A DNA stretch of 64,000 nucleotides from an uncultured Clostridia bacterium. GTDB lineage: Bacteria; Bacillota; Clostridia; Christensenellales; UBA1242. Below the pieces are notes generated by a model. The model was given only the letters and a program-made list of their open reading frames with translations, made no database searches and was not told where the DNA came from. Each line of letters begins with the position of its first letter. Positions within the stretch are counted from its first letter, which is position 1. Made by a program: the position numbers and the translations under genes. Below are positions 49,498 to 59,792 of the stretch, piece after piece. The stretch covers positions 24,576 through 88,575 of the forward strand of contig CANQOO010000005.1 in assembly GCA_947625515.1 (NCBI GenBank), read 5' to 3'.

Positions 49498-50910
49498 ATG
49501 GAAAAAAGAAAATTGAATAAAACAAAAATTGTTTGCTCAATCGGGCCTGCCACGTCAAATGTGGAGGTTCTTGAAAAACTGATTGATGCGGGCATGAATG
49601 TGGCACGTTTTAACATGAGCCACGGCACGCATGAGAGCCACAAGCAGTTGATTGACGCTGTGCGAGCCGCCCGCGAACGCAAAAGCGAGGCAGTTGCCAT
49701 TCTCATTGACACCAAGGGCCCCGAAATACGCGTGAAGCAGTTTGAAAAGGGCAAAATTTTCTTGCAAAACGGCGACACCTTCGTGCTGACGACAGAGGAT
49801 GTTATTGGAAACGAGCAACGCGTTTCGGTCACATATGCAAAACTTCCAAAAATTGTCACAAAAGGTGCCAAAATTTTGCTAAACGACGGCAACATTGAGC
49901 TTCAAGTGACAAAATCCAAGGGCAAAAATGTGGAATGTGTTGTTGTGAACGGCGGAGAGCTTTCCAACAACAAAAGCATAAACTTGCCTGGCATAAAGAC
50001 GCAAATGCCATATCTTTCCGCCCAAGACAAAAGCGATTTACTGTTTGCCAAGCAGATGCAGGCGGACTACATAGCCATCTCCTTCGTTGGCTGTGCGGAC
50101 GACGTGCTGAGCGTGAAGGAATATTTGCAGCAAATCGATTTTCGGGATGTGAAAATCATTTCCAAGATTGAGAGCGACGAGGGCGTAAAGAATTTTGACC
50201 AAATTTTGCGTGTAAGCGACGGCATTATGGTTGCCCGCGGAGACCTTGGGGTGGAGATTGATTTTGAACGCATCCCTGTGCTGCAAAAAGAGTTCATCAA
50301 AAAGTGCAACGCCGTGGGGAAGATTTCCATCACCGCCACACAAATGCTTGAAAGCATGATTGAAAAGCCTCGCCCAACCCGTGCTGAGATTTCGGATGTG
50401 GCAAACGCCATTTTTGACGGCTCCACAGCCATTATGCTTTCCGGCGAAACTGCCTCCGGGGCACATCCCGTTGAAAGTGTGCTTGCCATGCACCGCATCG
50501 CCCTCGAAACAGAAAAATATGCCGACAGCCAAGCCCCTGCCATTCAAACACGCAACACCTCCCAAAGTCTGGGCTATGCCGCCTATGCTCTTTCTGAAAC
50601 ACGCGGAGTGGAAGGGATTGTTGTGGTGACAAAATCCGGCACAACTGCCAAAAACATCTCCAGGTTCCGCCCACGCGTGCCAATCATTGCCTGCACGCCA
50701 AGCGAAAAAACCTTCCACAACATGAGCCTGCTGTATGCAGTCTGCCCGCTGCTTGACAAAGAATATAAAAGCATCGAGGCGGTCAACAGCAGTTCTCTGC
50801 AAAAAGCACTTTCTTCCGGCCTGGTGCAAGAGGAAGAAAAAGTTGTGCTTGTCAGCGGAGCCAGAGCCGGCAAACGCGGCACCAGCACCATGGTCATAAA
50901 AAAACTTTAA
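49498..50910 (+). CDS. pyk: Pyruvate kinase
   Basis: KTKIVCSIGPAT...MNVARFNMSHG...MVARGDLGVEI. GGAGGG RBS. Confidence 0.9.
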   Translation: MEKRKLNKTKIVCSIGPATSNVEVLEKLIDAGMNVARFNMSHGTHESHKQLIDAVRAARERKSEAVAILIDTKGPEIRVKQFEKGKIFLQNGDTFVLTTEDVIGNEQRVSVTYAKLPKIVTKGAKILLNDGNIELQVTKSKGKNVECVVVNGGELSNNKSINLPGIKTQMPYLSAQDKSDLLFAKQMQADYIAISFVGCADDVLSVKEYLQQIDFRDVKIISKIESDEGVKNFDQILRVSDGIMVARGDLGVEIDFERIPVLQKEFIKKCNAVGKISITATQMLESMIEKPRPTRAEISDVANAIFDGSTAIMLSGETASGAHPVESVLAMHRIALETEKYADSQAPAIQTRNTSQSLGYAAYALSETRGVEGIVVVTKSGTTAKNISRFRPRVPIIACTPSEKTFHNMSLLYAVCPLLDKEYKSIEAVNSSSLQKALSSGLVQEEEKVVLVSGARAGKRGTSTMVIKKL

Positions 50911-51087
50911 CAAAATACAAAAAAAGAATTATAAAACAAAAAAATATTTAAAAAATCAAAATTTTCTTTGAAAAATTTACAAAAAAATCTTCAAAAAAAT
51001 CTTTAAAAAAATTTCTTCAAAAATTATTTATCATAATTAAAAAAACTTATTAAAATAAAACAATCTTCAAAAATATCTATCAAAAAA

Positions 51088-51125
51088 ATGGGCGAAACTT
51101 GCAAATTTGCCCATTTTTGTTTTTC
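51088..51125 (+). terminator. Intrinsic terminator after pyk
   Basis: atgggcgaa-acttgcaa-atttgcccat followed by tttttgttttt. Confidence 0.65.
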
Positions 51126-52527
51126 TATTTTTTCAGACTCTTTGCCACCTCAGTGAGGTTGAGGTGCAGTGCCGGACGGACGGTGTAAGTAACGCTGACA
51201 ACATTGCTAGCCCAGCGGTTACCATCCGGAGCCAGACCACTCACCCTGCTGCCACCAGTAATCCAGCCAGACCGATGCATGGTAAATGGTTGAGCCGTGA
51301 AGCCATAGTTTCCGTTACCAACCGTGCCACGGTAGGCACTGGAATTTAATTTTCTTTGAGCAGTGGATGTCTTCCAAATTCCGTTATAGTTGTCTTTATA
51401 GCCCGTCTCTGAATATGACGTTAACCACAGATAGTCGTCTTTCCAAGCATCGTTGCCAGCCTTGCCTTCAAAATGATTATTTTCATAGAAATTCCCCACT
51501 GTCGTATTTTGTGACCAGTTTTCATTTGGCAGATTATATGTTACATAATCTCCTCCCACTTCCGATGCTTTCTGCCCATCTTCCTGCCATGACACATGTT
51601 CGGGAGTAACTAAATATTTTGTCAAGCCAAATTGTGCCATTGTGAAAAGTGCAAACGCGTTGCTCTCGCTTTGCGTTGCAGCGGAGAGTGTAGTGATAGA
51701 TGTGGCATAATTCCCGCCATTGTTCAAAACAACGGCACTCATGTAGGACATTCCATACATATGGGATGGATAATCCACTGTGGAGCTATCATCCATCCAA
51801 TCCGCTGACCAATCACTATATAATGCCCCATCCAAGAAACCATAATATTCCCCCTCATCTGCCTTTCGGTCAGCCCATGCGTCTTGCTGATTGTCCGCCA
51901 GCCAGAGTGTTAAAATCACGTCGTGCGGCTCACTGTCTTTGCCCTCATTTGTGGTGGAAAGATATACTGGCGTCCATTTAAGCCCGCCAAGTTCAACAAT
52001 AATCTCTGCTTCGTAACTCTTGGCGGAGACAGCATAGTCGTCGTTCGCAGAGGCTGAGTTTGCAGGAATTAAATATTCTCTTGATGTGGCGTGATTCGCA
52101 GAAACAGAAGCGGCATTTGCGGATGCATAATAAGCAGCACCACCAGCGGCAGATTTTGTAGCAGCAGACAAATCCTCGTCCGCAGACGCGGAGTTCACCT
52201 TGTTGTAGTTTGCAATCATGTCTTCTGAGGTCATCCTTGTTGCTGCAAGAGCCTCAATCGGTGCCATGTTGTCCACCGTCGCTGTGTTGTCGCCTGAGAT
52301 GTTCCACAAAAGTTTGTTGACGTTGCTCTTGTCAAAAATTTGTGACACACGGTCCCATAGGTCCTGTGGAATGTCATAAATAACAGAAAAGCCGCCCTCG
52401 ATTCCGGTCGAAAGAGCAGCCAAAACAATGTTAGCCATAGTGCAAGTGATAACAAAAATGAAAAGACATATGAAGCCTGTATATTTTAGCTTATCAAAAA
52501 TCCCCCCCCCGCAAATTTTCGCTTCAT
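51125..52527 (-). CDS. Paralog A of a secreted/anchored protein family (C-terminal ...WLRSG/VRPALHLNL module). As sequenced, the reading frame is interrupted at a G9 tract
   Basis: RBS plus ATG at 52527 opens MKRKFAGGGFLIS*. The long ORF (track 51125-52438) is in the +1 frame. One extra G fuses them to give MKRKFAGGGIFDKLKYTGFICLFIFVITCTMANIVLAAL.... Confidence 0.75.
52502..52510 (-). repeat. Homopolymeric G9 (C9 on plus strand) in codons 6-9 of paralog A
   Basis: Counted directly: t ccccccccc g. Confidence 0.95.
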
Positions 52528-52632
52528 TTTCATTTCTCCTTTTTTATAGCATTTTCTCTCAAAATTTGAAATTGATAACATTTTTATTGATATATTTTGT
52601 TCAAAGATATCAATATATCAAAATTCTATTAT

Positions 52633-52661
52633 ATTATCTCAAAAAAATTTATTTTTGTCAA
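52633..52661 (-). promoter_or_regulatory. Sigma-70-type promoter of paralog A
   Basis: Minus strand: TTGACA-17 nt-GATAAT. Confidence 0.6.
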
Positions 52662-52682
52662 GCAAAAATTTCAGCGATAAAG

Positions 52683-52711
52683 AAAAAATCTCTGCAAAAG
52701 AGAGATTTTTT
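52683..52711. terminator. Hairpin terminator between paralogs B and A
   Basis: aaaaaatctct-gcaaaag-agagatttttt. Confidence 0.6.
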
Positions 52712-52839
52712 TACAAATCGCCAAAAATTTGTTTTTTTCAAACAATTTTTCATATTTCAACTGTTGTTGGCTTCGATGTTTAACCTTCCCCTGTTGTGGA
52801 CTTTTGATTGCAAACTTTGTTGCAAAATTTTGCTTTTGC

Positions 52840-54248
52840 CTAGTTTTTCAAACTTTTTGCCACCGCGGTGAGATTGAGGTGAAGTGCCGGTCGCACAGCA
52901 AATGAATTGCTGCTGACACGATATTGGTGCCATCCCTCGACTCCTGTATACAGACAAAAAGCATTGTAGGCATTATCTTTGCAGCCCGACCGAAGCCAGG
53001 TATATGGGTAAACCGGGCCCGTGACTGAGCCAACAGTTCCACTCACACTTGTCTTGCTGAGAAATCTTTGAGCAGTTGAGGTTTTCCAGATTCCGTTGGA
53101 GGTGTCATTGCTTCCAGTTTCTGAAAGTGACGGAAGCCAAAGAAAGTCGTTTTTCCAAGCGTCATTGCTCTCTTTTCCAGCATAGTTGAATTGCCCATCA
53201 TTATAAAAATCCGTATTTGGGACTTTTTCATTATTTCCCCAGTTTTCGTTCGGAAGGTCATAATCAAGGTCATCTATTTGCTCTTTTGCACTTTGGCCGC
53301 TTTCTTGCCAGGAAACTTGCCCGGGTGTTACAATGAAATTGGTCAAGCCAAACTTTTCCATCGTGAAAAGTGCAAATGGATTGCTGTCACTCTGTTCAGC
53401 TGACAACATTTTCGTTCCTGATGTGGCATAACTTCCACCATTATTGAGTGTCACCGCTTTTATATAAGATGTCCCATACATATCGGATGGATATGTTTCT
53501 GTTGGGTTGTCCTTAAACCAATTTGCAGACCAGTCGCTATACAATGCCCCGTCCAAAAAGCCATAATACAGACCTTCATCATTTTTTCGGTCAGCCCAAG
53601 CGTCTTGCTGATTGTCCGCCAACCACAAAGTTAAAATCACATCGTGCGGCTCACTGTCTTTTCCCTCATTTGTGGTGGAAAGATAGACTGGCGTCCATTT
53701 AAGCCCGCCCAGTTCAACAATAATTTCCGCATCATAACTTTTGGCGGAGACGGAATAATCCTCGCTCACAAAGGCTGAGTTTGCAGGAATTAAATATTCG
53801 CTTGATGTGGCGGGATTCGCAGAAACAGAAGCGGTATTTGCGGATGCATAATAAGCGGCATCAGCAGATGCATAGTTTGCATACGCATACAAATCCTCGT
53901 CCACAGATGCGGGGTTCACCTTGTTGTAGTTTGCAATCATGTCCGCAGAGGTCAGCTTGGTTGCTGCAAGGGCCTCAATCGGTGCCATATTGTCCACCGT
54001 CGCAGTGTTGTCGCCTGAGATGTTCCACAACAGTTTGTTCACATTGCTTTTGTCAAAGATTTGTGACACTCGGTCCCATAGGTCCTGAGGAATATCGTAG
54101 ATAACAGAAAAGCCGCCCTCGATTCCGGTCGAAAGAGCAGCCAAAACAATGTTAGCCATAGTGCAAGTGATAACAAAAAGGAACAGCAAAACAAAGCCGG
54201 TGTATTTTAACTTATCAAAAATCCCCCCCCCGCGAATTTACGTCTCAT
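52840..54248 (-). CDS. Paralog B of the same family; frame interrupted at a G9 tract
   Basis: GGAGAGG RBS plus ATG at 54248 opens MRRKFAGGGFLIS*. The long ORF is +1. G10 would give MRRKFAGGGIFDKLKYTGFVLLFLFVITCTMANIV.... Confidence 0.75.
54223..54231 (-). repeat. Homopolymeric G9 in codons 6-9 of paralog B
   Basis: Counted directly: at cccccccc c gcg. Confidence 0.95.
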
Positions 54249-54436
54249 GTTTGCCTCTCCTTTTTCTTAATATTATTTTCATTCAAATTTTAAATTTGAT
54301 AACTTTTTGTTGATATTTTAAATGAAAACAATTTACTTTGAATTTGTTATTTCTGAAAACGCCTTCACTTGTTTCAAACTATTTAATAAAATTTTGGTTC
54401 GAAACTTGATATTCAAATATCCATATATTCTTTTTT

Positions 54437-54465
54437 ATTATCTCAAAAAAAATTATATTTGTCAA
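54437..54465 (-). promoter_or_regulatory. Sigma-70-type promoter of paralog B
   Basis: Minus strand: TTGACA-17 nt-GATAAT. Its context is homologous to the paralog A promoter. Confidence 0.6.
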
Positions 54466-54484
54466 GCAAAAATTTCCGTGATAT

Positions 54485-54515
54485 AAAAAAATCTCTGCCA
54501 AAGCGAGATTTTTTA
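54485..54515. terminator. Hairpin terminator between paralogs C and B
   Basis: aaaaaaatctctgc-caaa-gcgagatttttt. Confidence 0.55.
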
Positions 54516-54613
54516 TTTCAAATTGCAAAAATGTTTTATTTTTCAAATTAATTTTTCACATTCAACTGTTGTTGCTTCTGATTGCAAACTTTGTTGCAAA
54601 ATTTTGCTTTTGC

Positions 54614-55965
54614 CTAATTTTTCAAACTTTTTGCCACCGCGGTGAGATTGAGGTGCAGTGCCGGTCGCACAGCACAACAATCTGCGGTATGTGGATCAGA
54701 AGATATAGTAGCTCTGCCACTGTCATACATAACATATGCTTTATCCACCTCATTGGTGCCAGTTCGAAGCCATGAGCAGTGGTGAGCTGTCCTGCCACTG
54801 CCGCTGCTAGTTTTGCCGACCTCCCCCATCGTTATATACCATCCGCTTTGCTCATTTGTTACAAATCTGAGAGCTCTTTGAGAAACCGTAGTTTTCCAAA
54901 TGCCATTGAATGTACTATCGTTGCCCGTTTCAGATATAGATGGAAGCCAAAGATAGTCATCTTTCCAAGAGTCATTGCCATCTTTGCCAGCGTAGTTGAA
55001 TTCCCCATTATTATAAAAATCTGTGTCAGGAACCTGCTCCTTATTGTTCGCCCAGTTTTCGTTTGGACAGTTGTATGATGAGATGCCACTTATTTGATTT
55101 TTTGCACTTTGACCACTTTCCTGCCAAGATACATGCTCTGGTGTCACAATATATTGTGTAAGCCCAAATTCCGGCATTGTGAATGCCGCAAAAACACTGT
55201 CCTTGTTTTGTTCAACTGTTGTTGTTTGAGTTCTGGTTTTGGCATAGACACCGCCATTGTTAAGAATCACAGCACTCATATAGGATGTCCCATACATATT
55301 AGACGGATATTCTTGTTGGTCACTAATATCATAATAACCTGACCAAACGCCATACAATCCACCATCTAAGAAACCATAACAATCGTCCTCGTCGGCGGCT
55401 CTATCCACCCAAGCATCTTGTTCGTTGTCTGTCAACCAAAGAGTGAGAATCACGTCGTGCGGCTCATTGTCTTTGCCCTCATTTGTTGTGGAAAGAAAGA
55501 CTGGAGTCCATTTAAGTCCGCCTAATGTGATTATAATTTCCGCATCATTGCTCATTGCAGAGATAGAATAGTCCTCGTTCGCAGATTTAAAGTTCGCGGA
55601 TGCAGACAAATCTTCGTCCGCAGATGCAGGGTTCACCTTGTTGTAGTTTGCAATCATGTCCGCAGAGGTCATCCTGCCTGCTGCAAGGGCCTCAATCGGT
55701 GCCATGTTGTCCACCGTCGCTGTGCTGTCGCCTGAAATGTGCCACAAAAGTTTGTTGACATTGCTCTTGTCAAAAACTTGTGACACACGGTCCCATAGGT
55801 CCTGCGGAATATCGTAGATAACAGAAAAGCCGCCCTCGATTCCTGTCGAAAGAGCAGCCAAAACAATGTTAGCCATAGTGCAAGTGATAACAAAGAGAAA
55901 CAAGCAAACAAAGCCGGTTAATTTTAGCTTATCAAAAATCCCCCCCCCGCAAATTTTCGCTTCAT
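54614..55965 (-). CDS. Paralog C of the same family; frame interrupted at a G9 tract
   Basis: AGGAGA RBS plus ATG at 55965 opens MKRKFAGGGFLIS*. The long ORF is +1. G10 would give MKRKFAGGGIFDKLKLTGFVCLFLFVITCTMANIV.... Confidence 0.75.
55940..55948 (-). repeat. Homopolymeric G9 in codons 6-9 of paralog C
   Basis: Counted directly: c cccccccc gc. Confidence 0.95.
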
Positions 55966-56126
55966 AGACATTTCTCCTTTTTCATCAACGCCACGTGCCG
56001 CAACAGATTTGCAATCATTTGCAAATTTTATTTATTATTTGCAACCAGCCCGCATTTTACAACGCAGTTTTATGCAAAATATCAATTTTTTGTTGCTTTC
56101 AGTGGCAATAATTCAATTTCATTTCT

Positions 56127-56155
56127 ATTCTACTATTTTTTGCACAGCCTGTCAA
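56127..56155 (-). promoter_or_regulatory. Sigma-70-type promoter of paralog C
   Basis: Minus strand: TTGACA-17 nt-TAGAAT. Confidence 0.55.
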
Positions 56156-56545
56156 GCAAATTTTCAATTTGGCATATAATTTTCATATTTTACATCCCGT
56201 AATTCAAATCTTATTTTTCTCCTAACATTTTATTTTTCTCATCCCATCTACCTAATTTCGCCTTCATCGCCCACTCTTTTTCCCAAATTCCACACATCCT
56301 TCCAAATCCACACATGCAATTTTTTTCGTTTCTCGCCGCCTTTATTTTATCGCGGAGTCTTGTGTCTAATTTTTAGGCTTGCCACTTTTACATCGAAAAC
56401 ATCGCACCGGCAAACAACATTCCGAGGATGGGCGAAAATCATGCCAAGGGCAGGAATATATCAAAGATGGGCAAAAAATGTTCCAGCGGTGGACGAAAAA
56501 TTTTCATATAAAACATGCCAATTTTATTTTTTTTGCGAAATTAAA

Positions 56546-56574
56546 TTGACATCGCCAGAAAAATATGTTAACAT
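56546..56574 (+). promoter_or_regulatory. Sigma-70-type promoter (extended -10) directing transcription toward the tRNA-Thr locus
   Basis: TTGACA-17 nt-(TGT)TAACAT. Confidence 0.55.
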
Positions 56575-56797
56575 ATCAAAGCAGTTAGATTTCCAGTTGA
56601 AGTTTGAGCAGACGCCAAAGAAGTTGCAATATCATGAACTTGCCCTTTATGAAGCCTCTGTGTAATTGGCAATGGTTCCCTACGACTCCATACAATTCCA
56701 CTCAATTCAATTGTCTATCTGCTCAATTATCAAAAACCGAGCGTCTGTCCACTCAAAAAATCGAGTGCAGAAGAATCACCAAGCAACTTGTTTGTAT

Positions 56798-56836
56798 GCT
56801 GATGTGGCTCAGTCGGTAGAGCGTCGCCTTGGTAAG
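56798..56836 (+). pseudogene. Truncated tRNA-Thr(GGT) 5' half, ending just after the anticodon loop
   Basis: GCTGATGTGGCTCAGTCGGTAGAGCGTCGCCTTGGTAAG is followed by unrelated sequence. Its acceptor and D arm differ from the intact copy 52 nt downstream. Confidence 0.8.
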
Positions 56837-56888
56837 ACAAAAAAGTGGCATTTTGCAGGTGTAAAAAACAACTAAATATCCCCAATTT

Positions 56889-56963
56889 GCTGGTGTGGCT
56901 TAGTGGGAAAGCGCGGCCTTGGTAAGGCCGAGAGAGCGGGTCCGATCCCCGCCACCAGCTCCA
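56889..56963 (+). tRNA. tRNA-Thr (anticodon GGT), CCA encoded
   Basis: The full cloverleaf was checked by hand: acceptor GCTGGTG/CACCAGC, anticodon arm CGGCC-TTGGTAA-GGCCG, T arm GCGGG/CCCGC. Confidence 0.9.
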
Positions 56964-56970
56964 TAAAAAA

Positions 56971-57004
56971 GTGTCTAAAATCCTTTATTTTAGGCACTTT
57001 TTTT
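56971..57004 (+). terminator. Intrinsic terminator after tRNA-Thr(GGT)
   Basis: gtgtctaaaat-ccttt-attttaggcac followed by a T-run. Confidence 0.8.
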
Positions 57005-57170
57005 ATTTTTTCATAACAACTAAAAATTTTCAAAAATCTTTACACTTTTTACACTTAGCACAAAAAAAAGGACCGAAGTTCACATTTTTTGAACTTCGGT
57101 CCAATTCGTTCTAAAACTGCCAAAAACTTGTATATTTGTTGTCAACTGTTGTCAAATTGTTGTCAGTTTT

Positions 57171-57877
57171 TTACATTTCAAAATCTTTTTCTCGTTTTCT
57201 TTTTCGTTCTTCTCTTTCTTTCATAAGTTTTTCAAACAAGGCGTCAAGCTCATCATCAGTAAATTGTGTGGTAGGGCTGTCATCTTGTTCGGTTGAATTG
57301 CTTTCATTTACAATATTGTTTTCTTTAATTCTTTCATTAAGTTTGTCAGTTGTTTGCCGTATATACTCATTGTCAACAGAATTATAGACTGTAATTGTCG
57401 TCTTTACATCTCTATGGCCTAAAAGTTGTTGTATAACTTTTGGATTTTCGTTCATTTCAAACAACATATTTGAAAAAGTTGCGTGACCGCTTGTTCAATT
57501 TTTAAGCGTTTGTTCTCAAAATCAACATTCGACCACTTCAAAGCAAGAGCTTCGCCAATTCGTAGTCCAGAAAACATTAAGACAACGCACAATGGCTTGA
57601 TAAAGTTTGCTTCGTCCTTATTTAATGCTTCTAAAAACTTTTTCCTAATTTCTGGTGTAAGCACTTTATATTTTTCTTTTTTGTTATTTCTGTCTTGGCT
57701 TTTTAATTTTATCTTCGAGACGGGATTAACTGAAATCCATTTATTGTCAATGGCATAATCAAAAAATTGTCCCAAAATGTGCTTGTTCTTTTTTATTGTG
57801 TCGCTGGCATAACCACCGTCAACCATATTGTTTATAAGTTTTTGAACAGTCATAGTGTCTATATCATAAACTTTCAT
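57171..57877 (-). pseudogene. Tyrosine recombinase/integrase remnant (internal deletion plus frameshift)
   Basis: ORF 57452-57877 carries ...FSGLRIGEALALKWSNVDFENKRLKIEQ. ORF 57171-57467 carries ...(GHATFSN)MLFEMNENPKVIQQLLGHRDVKTTITVYNSV. The roughly 100 aa that normally lie between them are missing. Confidence 0.75.
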
Positions 57878-58848
57878 ATTGCCAATGATAGGTAAAATAT
57901 GGAGTTTAAAATTTCTAATATTTCCTTAAAAAAGCAAATGCGAAATGCTTTTTGCTTTCTTCCATAGGTCTTCATTTTCTCAATTTCATCATGCTGTTTT
58001 CCAAGTTCCAAAGCAGTTTGAATTGTCTTATTTCCAAGCCTTCTAAACATATCTTCTTTGTAGTGAATTCCATCATTCGCATATCTTTGTTTTTTCCAAG
58101 TTTGCATTTCGGCAAGTTTTTCATTGTAGTTCAAATATGATTTCCAAGTCTGCTCGTTGTGGACTAAAAACCATTCTGTCGTCTCGTCTATTTTCTTTTT
58201 CAGTGGCAGCATATTTTCGCTATCATAGCCAAGCCTTCCAGATTTTGGCAACTCTTTGTAAAGTTCCAACAGCATCTCTTTTGCAAATTTTTCTATATTG
58301 TCCAAAGTTTCCATGTTCAAAGTAAATTTATTATTGGATAGTTCGTCTTTTGCAGTGTCAATAATGTCTTGTGAAATCTCTTTATAATGAGTTTCAAACC
58401 AATATGTTTTAACAAATTTTTTGTCATGCGTAAGATAAAAAGCAAAGTGTTTGTGTGTTGTTGCCATAAATTGCGTTAGCGCACTTCTTGTCATGTTGTG
58501 CTTTTTGGCAATATCGCTCATTCGCATATCGAGTATGTATCGTTCTCTCATAATTTCTTGTTGAAGTGGAGTTAGGTTTTTCGCCACAGCCCAAATAACT
58601 TCGGCGAAAATTTTATCTTCGACCTCTTTTTCAACATCTACATTTGGATCTGCGATTGTTTCTTCAAAAGTTATCTCGTCATCATCTTCAAAAATGCTGT
58701 TATTAAAACTGCGTTCATAAAATCTGGCTTTTAGCATAAGCCTTCGCCATTTTCTGTCGGCCGCCCAAAGATAGCGTGCAACTGCTTCGCTGACCTCAAC
58801 ATCAACGATTTGCCCATGTATTCTATCTCTGTATTTTATCCAAACCAC
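57874..58848 (-). CDS. Hypothetical protein with sigma-70 region-4-like HTH (phage/ICE regulator-like)
   Basis: ...NLTPLQQEIMRERYILDMRMSDIAKKHNMTRSALTQFM.... GTG start in the track; the start is uncertain. Confidence 0.4.
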   Translation of the reverse strand: MVWIKYRDRIHGQIVDVEVSEAVARYLWAADRKWRRLMLKARFYERSFNNSIFEDDDEITFEETIADPNVDVEKEVEDKIFAEVIWAVAKNLTPLQQEIMRERYILDMRMSDIAKKHNMTRSALTQFMATTHKHFAFYLTHDKKFVKTYWFETHYKEISQDIIDTAKDELSNNKFTLNMETLDNIEKFAKEMLLELYKELPKSGRLGYDSENMLPLKKKIDETTEWFLVHNEQTWKSYLNYNEKLAEMQTWKKQRYANDGIHYKEDMFRRLGNKTIQTALELGKQHDEIEKMKTYGRKQKAFRICFFKEILEILNSIFYLSLAI

Positions 58849-58958
58849 AAATCCATTTTAACACAAAAACAATTAAAAATCTTGCATTTGTGACAACATT
58901 CTTTGTCGATTATTGTAGAAGTCCAAATTTTTGGACTTGTTTGAAACTGATTTTTTTT

Positions 58959-59792
58959 CTAATCTGCACTATCTTTGTTGTCCAACAACAAATGATTGCT
59001 TGTTTGACTTAATACTCTCAGTTGAGATTTGGCCATATTGTTCAGTTGCACAAGCCTTTCGCTTTGTGGGACTTTTTGTTCAATTAAAATGGCGTTATAA
59101 CTTTCCATATTTGCAATAACAAGTAATTGTTCTATTGTCGCATAATCTCTTATGTTGCCTTTAAGATTTGGATTTTCGGTTTTCCACTCGCCAGCAGTCT
59201 TTCCAAAAAGTGCAACATTCAAAACATCTGCTTCGTTAGCATAAACAAAATTGATTTGATTTTTTGTTAGAGTTGGCACAATCAAATTCTCTTTGATAGC
59301 ATCTGTATGTATGTGATAGTTAAGTTTTGCAAGCTCGCGCTTTGCGTTCCACTCCAATTCTTTTTGTTCTGCAATCTTTAAGCGCTGAAATTCCATATTC
59401 AAATACAATTCAAATTCAACGGAAATCCAACTAGCAAATTTTAGTGCAATATCTCTATGGGCATAAGTTCCGCCATACCTACCACTTTTAGAAATTAAAC
59501 CTATTGCGTTAGTTTTTTCAGTCCATTCTTGCGCGGTTAAAACAAAAGCATTTTCTCCTGCTTGATTTTTAATGTTACCGAATTCGGTAACTTTAAAATT
59601 TGGATTATGCAAAGTTTCCCACAAACCCAAATATTGAATTGTAGAAAAATTCCTTAACCAATGAATTATAACTAAACCAGAATGCTCTGGATTTTTTGCT
59701 TTTGCCATATCTGTTAAGCAAATATAATCATCATCATTGATGTTGGTATATCTAACATTTAAACCTTGAACAACAATTTCGTTTTTTGTCAT
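58959..59792 (-). CDS. KilA-N domain DNA-binding protein
   Basis: ...ICLTDMAKAKN......WLRN..T..YL..WE........AQEW......GLISKSGRYGGTYAHRDIALKFASWIS... Confidence 0.7.
   Translation of the reverse strand: MTKNEIVVQGLNVRYTNINDDDYICLTDMAKAKNPEHSGLVIIHWLRNFSTIQYLGLWETLHNPNFKVTEFGNIKNQAGENAFVLTAQEWTEKTNAIGLISKSGRYGGTYAHRDIALKFASWISVEFELYLNMEFQRLKIAEQKELEWNAKRELAKLNYHIHTDAIKENLIVPTLTKNQINFVYANEADVLNVALFGKTAGEWKTENPNLKGNIRDYATIEQLLVIANMESYNAILIEQKVPQSERLVQLNNMAKSQLRVLSQTSNHLLLDNKDSAD

Follow-up and report, generated by a model that had tools for sequence, protein, structure and literature searches.

The stochastic variation of surface structures is understood in detail for a few Gram-negative pathogens, and to our knowledge it is hardly charted in the abundant, mostly uncultured Clostridia of the gut, invertible promoters aside. 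The contingency genes of Campylobacter, Haemophilus and Neisseria carry tracts of at least eight G residues in the coding regions or promoter spacers of genes for surface structures, and the length of these tracts varies between isolates and sets the reading frame; in the opa genes of Neisseria the repeat sits in the leader-peptide region. Here we describe a comparable locus in a host that, unlike these Gram-negative pathogens, is an uncultured gut Clostridia bacterium (Christensenellales, UBA1242). Within a 64,000-nucleotide stretch of contig CANQOO010000005.1 (hereafter the window), three tandem paralogous open reading frames (ORFs) on the minus strand, designated c1, c2 and c3, are complete and full-length, and they probably form a switchable, recombining array encoding exported lectin-like proteins, the mosaic conservation of which has two causes.

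The opa family shares with this locus several complete paralogs with promoters of their own, a simple-sequence repeat in the 5' coding sequence that toggles translation, and a conserved framework around semivariable and hypervariable regions, which in opa are shuffled by inter-locus recombination and gene conversion (PMC13183285). The two are not homologous, Opa being an outer-membrane beta-barrel of a Gram-negative pathogen whereas the array belongs to a gut Clostridia host and has a variable domain predicted to be lectin-like; moreover, the opa repeat is a pentamer (CTCTT) and the opa loci are dispersed, while here the repeat is a homopolymer and the genes stand in tandem. In the babA, babB and babC genes of Helicobacter pylori, conserved N- and C-terminal parts likewise enclose a divergent middle, CT repeats in the 5' coding sequence give in-frame and out-of-frame states, and intragenomic gene conversion places the repeat-bearing 5' end on another body, with crossovers ~60-240 bp from the start (PMC4552749) that closely match the head swaps at codon ~69 described below. 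The bab genes are also non-homologous, have a dinucleotide repeat, are dispersed, and bear the repeat on only some of their heads, whereas here every copy has one. As in an Opa/Bab-type system, the window holds more than one complete paralog, none sharing its promoter or repeat switch with another, and by analogy the array would work like opa and even more like bab.

DUF6273, the domain family to which the window proteins appear to belong, is described as C-type-lectin-like and as a frequent target of diversity-generating retroelements (DGRs), whose variable region makes up a beta-hairpin exposed at the C-terminal end of the domain (PMC10743442, PMC11792537). The DGR-diversified phage members (the tentaclins and the Faecalibacterium prophage targets) thus resemble the predicted window proteins in domain family, in C-type-lectin-like fold and in concentrating their variability in loops and a C-terminal hairpin (PMC10743442, PMC11792537). 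They differ in that the window genes are chromosomal bacterial genes and not genes for phage tail proteins, that the window contains no reverse transcriptase or template repeat, and that variation here would come from diverged paralogs, recombination and on/off switching. In Thomasclavelia ramosa, residues 31-322 of the immunoglobulin A (IgA) peptidase ThomasA form an N-terminal domain annotated as DUF6273, to which the available part of the published account assigns no IgA-binding role (PMC12402451); the window proteins, unlike ThomasA, are without a peptidase domain.

Upstream of each copy a sigma-70-like promoter is followed by a ribosome-binding site (RBS; AAAAAGGAGA) and then by a short leader ORF of the form ATG-AAG/AGA-CGA/CGT-AAA-TTY-GCG-G9-ATTTTTGATAAG-TAA, with the G9 tract five codons past the leader ATG in c1, c2 and c3. 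These are the only G/C homopolymers of at least 6 in the 64 kb (C9 on the plus strand), and they occupy the equivalent leader position in each gene. With G9, the state of all three window copies, the leader is only 13 codons long; a G10 tract turns it into M(K/R)RKFAGGGIFDKLKYTGF(I/V)(C/L)LF.FVITCT, continuing into MANIVLAALSTG..., and in c1 it would read MKRKFAGGGIFDKLKYTGFICLFIFVITCT, joining MANIVL.... Because the G10 leader would run into MANIVL, the ORFs that start there are 5'-truncated readings of genes that are out of frame. The fused N-terminus, a charged start followed by ~22 hydrophobic residues, is a predicted signal or anchor sequence, which suggests that the ON product is exported. 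A lipoprotein signal was considered and rejected by eye, since Thr precedes Cys in ...FVITC and the site is not a canonical lipobox.

That the fused form exists is shown by close relatives called in that form: MxRKFAGGG(I)FDKLK...MANIVLA begins proteins P0002, P0005, P0007, P0008 and P0121, while an internal Met is the called start of P0003, P0006, P0009 and P0010. Across the window and seven related contigs, 14 tracts in three slightly different downstream contexts had lengths of G8, G9 or G10, five being in frame (ON) and nine out of frame (OFF). Contig L065, 99.86% identical to the window over 2.8 kb, has a G10 (ON) tract in c2 where the window has G9, and one and the same body occurs OFF in P0006 and ON in P0121. 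The locus therefore shows two of the things expected of a phase-variable locus, namely a repeat of at least 8 units in the 5' coding region and frame-setting length differences between samples. No inverted repeats bracket any of the three promoters in 50900-57100, as they would in an inverton, and the only Rfam match in the same interval is a tRNA, with no family matching the leaders, so the poly-G tract is the only switch visible. The first-pass annotation of this DNA had proposed independent on/off switches, and this is borne out by the leader tract that each copy has of its own; hence each copy would toggle alone, probably through slipped-strand mispairing and reversibly.

Where the tract is out of frame, public gene calls take the internal Met as the start, or a TTG shortly before it (window 51125-55903; P0003, P0004, P0006, P0009 and P0010). 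Database entries of the same gene therefore differ by ~30 N-terminal residues, the shorter ones lacking the signal sequence, and users should be warned that gene callers cut these genes at the internal ATG in every out-of-frame case, which means 9 of the 14 tracts considered here.

The first-pass annotation had also described three paralogous minus-strand ORFs in which the first ~95 codons, a central block and the last ~20 codons were near-identical in all copies. An identity scan confirmed the three ORFs and a strongly non-uniform divergence, with identity blocks, while qualifying each block (segments are given in c2 codon numbering). For all window pairs, nucleotide identity is 93-95% in codons 1-45 and 89-90% in codons 46-92, so that the 5' likeness holds for ~92 codons and amounts to ~90-95%, not identity. 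The central block (codons 146-190) is 93% identical between c1 and c2, whereas c3 reaches just 79-80% against either. In the last 22 codons c2 and c3 are 92% identical, and c1 matches them at 76-78%. Between these, identity falls to 61-65% in codons 191-330 and 48-58% in codons 331-417. The Ala/Ser-rich low-complexity segment (codons 93-145), which had been thought divergent, is not so between c1 and c2 (84% identity); c3 has a 32-codon deletion there.

Silent sites follow the same pattern. Divergence at four-fold-degenerate sites rises from 0.23-0.27 over codons 1-190 to 0.58-0.74 over codons 191-432 (Fisher p = 4e-5, 2e-3 and 1e-6 for the three window pairs), and the conservation pattern therefore exceeds what amino-acid constraint would give. 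For c1-c2, synonymous divergence (dS) is 0.37 in codons 1-92, 0.24 in codons 93-145 and 0.34 in codons 146-190, and elsewhere from ~0.9 to saturated; for c2-c3 it is 0.24 in the head and 0.21 in the last 22 codons, with values >1 between; and for c1-c3 it is low in the head only (0.29; elsewhere 0.8 to saturated). The low-dS 3' tract of c2 and c3 extends past the stop codon into a near-identical stretch of ~36 nucleotides. Given that the low-dS tracts are particular to certain pairs and reach into non-coding DNA, they point to recombination, because selection at the protein level cannot make them.

Comparison with relatives gave further evidence of exchange. We aligned the codons of ten full-length copies from the window and contigs L001, L062, L063, L064 and L066; a scan of genome contigs had returned only relatives of <=50% identity, and two JGI metagenome scans for relatives had returned no matches. 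In segment-wise identity matrices the nearest neighbour changes along the genes and certain tracts are specific to certain pairs, and max-chi-square tests of triplets identified three breakpoints (permutation p <= 0.002 each). At codon ~175 copy L001_999 switches from likeness to its tandem neighbour L001_2750 (106:14 informative sites), with which it is 96% identical in codons 93-145, to likeness to L062_100 (51:199), and at codon ~196 the window c2 switches from c1 (61:20) to L064_1008 (90:120). The third breakpoint is at codon ~69-70 of L063, with informative sites at 298:0 to its right: L063 and the window have 0 differences over 1.63 kb, from 53955 down to 52328 (c2 codon ~69 into c1), and ~72 differences in the 345 nucleotides upstream of 53955, a stretch that takes in the head and leader and passes beyond the RBS.

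At the protein level the head of L063 is that of P0006, and P0006 and P0121 are identical at residues 70-419, their four differences all lying in residues 23-69; from the three together it follows that one head occurs on two bodies and one body with two heads. What L062_100 has in common with other copies is the leader and ~40 codons (87-92% identity), after which identity drops to ~50%, and among the paralogs of two unrelated genomes (accession prefixes CAZOFH and CAOJXO) identity is 84-98% over the ~100 nucleotides around the poly-G and 50-70% beyond. Mosaic alleles of the Opa/Bab type, arising through recombination between paralogs, are thus found at this locus, several of the contigs being of low coverage. 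The proposal of recombination or gene conversion made in the first-pass annotation is accordingly upheld by silent-site heterogeneity, by max-chi-square breakpoints and by relatives with the same body and different heads. Its further suggestion, that conserved handles flank the variable regions, holds in part: the breakpoints at ~175 and ~196 fall in or at the edge of the central block, but the clearest exchanged unit is the 5' head, comprising the RBS, leader, poly-G and codons 1 to ~69, with the change in L063 reaching also upstream of the RBS, and not a variable cassette framed by handles.

In L063, which comes from another sample, a gene for a GLUG-motif protein (1-920) precedes the c2-c1 pair in place of c3, the tRNA and the integrase remnant; it has no match in the window or in the other compared loci. 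L063 may represent either a strain with different array content and context or an assembly chimera, the latter because no donor for its head and upstream flank matched above 91% among the compared sequences. In other relatives the genes occur as a single copy between a gene for a 453-residue protein and an ftsA-like gene (L067, 5163-6512), as a tandem pair followed by rpsU and uvrD (L001, 999-4048), and as a tandem pair (L062, 100-2790). This variation in copy number and context among close relatives suggests that the genes move or are gained and lost.

Several observations weigh against a recombining, switchable array. Metagenome contigs covered only 2-4x are the source of the clearest chimeras (L063, L062_100 and possibly P0006 or P0121), and such contigs could have been mis-joined where the copies have long identical k-mers. 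The G10 tract of L065 lies only 6 nucleotides from a contig end, all three window tracts are G9 (OFF), a length that is also commonest elsewhere, and the treatment of G-runs by Illumina chemistry or assemblers could bias tract length. A GENECONV-style run permutation restricted to the three window copies gave no significant result (p = 0.23-0.55); being conditioned on polymorphic sites, this test is blind to a tract homogenised in all three copies, and the silent-site contrasts and the max-chi-square triplets with relatives were used in its place. Finally, the heads are 93-95% alike within the window and up to 96% alike between genomes, which does not point to strict within-genome concerted evolution of the head; no housekeeping gene on the relatives' contigs overlaps the window for calibration of head similarity, and slow silent-site change in the head retains some standing as an alternative.

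The first of these concerns can be put as a general alternative, in which chimeras and near-identical heads are artefacts of short-read assembly, produced by repeat collapse and by joins at shared k-mers. Contigs L001 and L062-L067 are indeed SPAdes contigs at 2.3-4.2x coverage, L063 jumps from ~80% to 100% identity right where the copies have long identical stretches and its upstream gene is unrelated to the window, and L062 starts inside a repeat, its first 131 nucleotides being the same as its neighbour's. We nevertheless regard such an origin as unlikely, given that the window heads differ by 5-10% and so have not been collapsed, and that independent assemblies reproduce the window at 99.86% (L065) and 100% (the body of L063). 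In addition, L001_999 and L001_2750 are in tandem on one contig and their common tract is 96%, not 100%, identical; the same protein pair occurs on a 306-kb NCBI contig; and the silent-site contrast within the window is independent of any other contig.

It could also be proposed that there has been no recombination, the copies being old tandem duplicates whose identity blocks reflect purifying selection on the protein only. For part of the mosaic this is the reading we adopt. Relatives of 52-60% identity retain four blocks, namely the central one, WKxDYLWLPSxSETG..GIW, WLRSG and AVRPALHLNLT (the central, YLWLPS..GIW and AVRPALHLNLT blocks in relatives down to ~50%), and compared with c3 the central and C-terminal blocks have dS >1 at a ratio of nonsynonymous to synonymous divergence (dN/dS) of ~0.09. 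Conservation in distant relatives together with high dS and low dN/dS argues for constraint at the protein level and not for recent exchange, and the earlier idea that these blocks are conserved as recombination handles needs amending, since they are kept mainly as core strands of the fold. As an account of the whole locus, the proposal agrees with the null GENECONV-style test, but it leaves unexplained why codons 1-190 show 2-3 times less divergence at silent and four-fold sites, why likeness reaches the non-coding leader, the RBS and the downstream spacer, why low-dS tracts are particular to certain copy pairs, and why significant breakpoints occur with nearest neighbours switching along the gene. 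Given the silent-site contrast it is largely refuted, and we consider it quite improbable.

An AlphaFold2 model of c2, built on a 102-sequence alignment (predicted local distance difference test score 86, predicted template-modelling score 0.84), contains a small helical domain (residues 25-85), a disordered Ala/Ser-rich linker (89-133) and a large domain (135-439) that has the conserved blocks as beta-strands. The resemblance to DUF6273 that had been noted in the first-pass annotation is real, though against the PF19789 profile, whose gathering threshold is 23.5 bits, c2 (22.0 bits) and c3 (17.9 bits) score below threshold and c1 has no match. Homologs of 52-60% identity score above it (P0011, 27.8; P0015, 26.9; P0020, 24.6 bits), and many further relatives have a precomputed PF19789 match. 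A sequence-profile search of the PDB gave no matches; in a Foldseek search the best solved match to the c2 model was the T. ramosa IgA peptidase (9qa6; E = 1.9e-3, probability 0.84, 288 aligned columns), with a low query-normalised template-modelling score (0.23) and 14% identity, and phage DUF6273 proteins match weakly. We assign the ~300-residue domain, with moderate confidence, to a divergent branch of the C-type-lectin-like DUF6273 family.

Between WLRSG and AVRPAL, residues 363-418 of the c2 model form loops and a beta-hairpin. In codons 363-417 dN/dS is 0.9-1.0 (0.72 in the closest available pair), compared with 0.03-0.27 elsewhere, and this least constrained segment matches the position of the DGR variable region in DUF6273 proteins. 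The hypervariable hairpin may accordingly bind ligands or be antigenic, and antigenic or receptor-binding variation can reasonably be inferred from the predicted fold and this segment. Taken with the signal or anchor sequence of the ON form, the lectin-like fold and a hairpin dN/dS of ~1 are consistent with a surface adhesin whose variable regions would set its specificity.

That the 3' divergence stems from DGR hypermutation, as in the phage proteins, rather than from paralog divergence and recombination is very unlikely. DUF6273 is a recurrent DGR target with a C-terminal variable region (PMC11792537, PMC10743442), and the least conserved codons, 363-417, lie at that position with a dN/dS near 1; but a search of the 64 kb with template adenines as wildcards found nothing resembling a template repeat for any of the 3' regions of c1, c2 and c3, no ORF of at least 200 amino acids in the window has a Y-x-DD reverse-transcriptase motif, and divergence is also present in codons 191-362, with indels, which DGRs do not make. 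A silent-cassette system like pilE/pilS or vlsE, in which promoterless donors serve a single expression site, is extremely improbable: the paralogs are in tandem and have conserved flanks around variable segments, but each is a full-length ORF that has its own RBS, start codon, switch tract and terminator as well as a strong promoter-like site, and a tblastn search of the whole 64-kb window with c2 matched c1, c2 and c3 only and found no truncated or promoterless copies, so that "cassette-like" does not apply in the silent-donor sense.

We therefore return to a switchable, recombining tandem array with two causes behind its mosaic. The array would consist of three complete, independently transcribed genes for putatively exported proteins, each made as a pre-protein with a signal or anchor, a small helical head, a disordered Ala/Ser-rich linker and the ~300-residue divergent DUF6273 domain. 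Slipped-strand changes in tract length would move the ribosome between a 13-codon dead-end leader and the full pre-protein. The first cause would be exchange among copies and among strains, by homologous recombination or gene conversion, keeping alike at silent sites the 5' head in all copies, the stretch to codon ~190 in c1 and c2, and the last 22 codons and downstream spacer in c2 and c3; it would also re-assort heads with bodies, the high-identity head being both the main substrate and the main product of exchange among complete paralogs and strains. The second would be purifying selection on the beta-strand framework of the lectin fold, keeping the central, YLWLPS..ETG..GIW and WLRSG/AVRPALHLNL blocks alike at the protein level only, while the surface loops and hairpin between the framework blocks would evolve almost neutrally. 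Such an array could adopt up to eight stochastic expression states that may differ in ligand-binding or antigenic specificity.

If this is correct, this lineage and its relatives hold a switchable, recombining repertoire of lectin-like surface proteins, with a bearing on how commensals persist against IgA, phages and changing glycan landscapes, and the locus offers a lead to the function of DUF6273. A literature search found no paper on switching by poly-G or on mosaics among paralogs, either for DUF6273 genes or for Christensenellales-type gut Clostridia.

The poly-G feature is family-wide: such tracts recur in distant relatives, known from metagenome-assembled genomes of the Christensenella/Catabacter type. 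In 786 kb of such sequence, 17 of 26 G/C runs of at least 8 lie on the gene strand and <=700 nucleotides upstream of a family match, where 2.2% of the strand-bases are found (binomial p = 2e-22), and 17 of 55 loci have such a tract. Some of these tracts are in the region coding for the signal peptide, and others are in the spacer between TTGACA and TATAAT, where they would act as a transcriptional, not a translational, switch. We tentatively suggest, as a possibility somewhat short of an even chance, that Christensenellales-type gut Clostridia run a large family of exported DUF6273 proteins as a contingency system, with poly-G in the signal-peptide region or the promoter spacer and shared heads swapped onto binding bodies across paralogs and strains. 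On that reading these bacteria would alter, through phase variation and the shuffling of paralogs, the very lectin surface that phages of the gut alter through DGRs, and no Opa/Bab-like system of surface variation would have been described before in this group of commensals.

Table 1. Features of the array in window coordinates, with poly-G tracts of distant relatives in coordinates of their own contigs.
Feature	Position	Strand	Remarks
c1 ORF	51125..52438	(-)	from internal ATG (MANIVL...), 437 amino acids; same sequence as protein P0004
c2 ORF	52840..54159	(-)	from internal ATG, 439 amino acids
c3 ORF	54614..55876	(-)	from internal ATG, 420 amino acids; same sequence as protein P0009
c1 sigma-70-like promoter	52633..52661	(-)	TTGACA, 17-nucleotide spacer, TG-GATAAT; 11/12 consensus positions
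c2 sigma-70-like promoter	54437..54465	(-)	11/12 consensus positions
c3 sigma-70-like promoter	56127..56155	(-)	TTGACA, 17-nucleotide spacer, TAGAAT; 11/12 consensus positions
c1 poly-G (G9)	52502..52510	(-)	in leader ORF 52527-52486 (MKRKFAGGGFLIS, then stop)
c2 poly-G (G9)	54223..54231	(-)	in leader ORF 54248-54207
c3 poly-G (G9)	55940..55948	(-)	in leader ORF 55965-55924
c1 homogenised 5' head (RBS, leader, poly-G, codons 1-92)	52164..52544	(-)	89% identity to c2 head (BLAST); head dS 0.29-0.37
c2 homogenised 5' head	53881..54270	(-)	breakpoint against L063 at 53955 (codon ~69)
c3 homogenised 5' head	55602..55983	(-)	low head dS
c2 codons 93-190, low-dS extension common to c1 only	53590..53883 (c1 51869-52162)	(-)	dS 0.24 and 0.34; >1 for either against c3
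c2 3' tract, last 22 codons and ~36 nucleotides past stop, common to c3	52805..52908 (c3 54579-54682)	(-)	dS 0.21; downstream non-coding sequence near-identical
c2 hypervariable segment, codons 363-417	52909..53073 (c1 51194-51361; c3 54683-54883)	(-)	dN/dS ~0.9-1.0
Terminator-like hairpin 3' of c1	51082-51118	(-)	read by eye
Terminator-like hairpin and T-run 3' of c2, also 5' of c1 promoter	52683..52707	(-)	read by eye
Terminator-like hairpin 3' of c3, counterpart of that of c2	54485-54510	(-)	read by eye
Poly-G in distant relatives, among others	L016 9639-9647, 20523-20531; L028 4545-4554; L030 723-733, 9419-9428		
Poly-G in distant relatives, among others	L009 9979-9988; L011 9756-9763; L031 58-71; L047 5174-5186; L051 46-56		

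The consensus scan for terminators did not flag the three terminator-like hairpins 3' of c1, c2 and c3. It did flag as terminator-like a hairpin with a 7-bp stem followed by CGGCTTTTCT in codons 9-18 of each copy (52395-52414, 54116-54135 and 55833-55852, minus strand), which may be an attenuator or a chance by-product of head conservation. The spacer from the pyk stop codon to the c1 terminator (50911-51080) is very AT-rich and holds several degenerate copies of TTTTTGAAGA(T/A)TTTTTT. Directly upstream of the array is a decayed integrative element (56889-59792), within which lie a tRNA-Thr(ggt) at 56889-56963, an integrase remnant of two ORFs matching only profile positions 2-60 and 140-170, a sigma-70-region-4/helix-turn-helix-like ORF (57874-58848) and a gene for a KilA-N protein (58959-59792). 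L065 shows this arrangement too.

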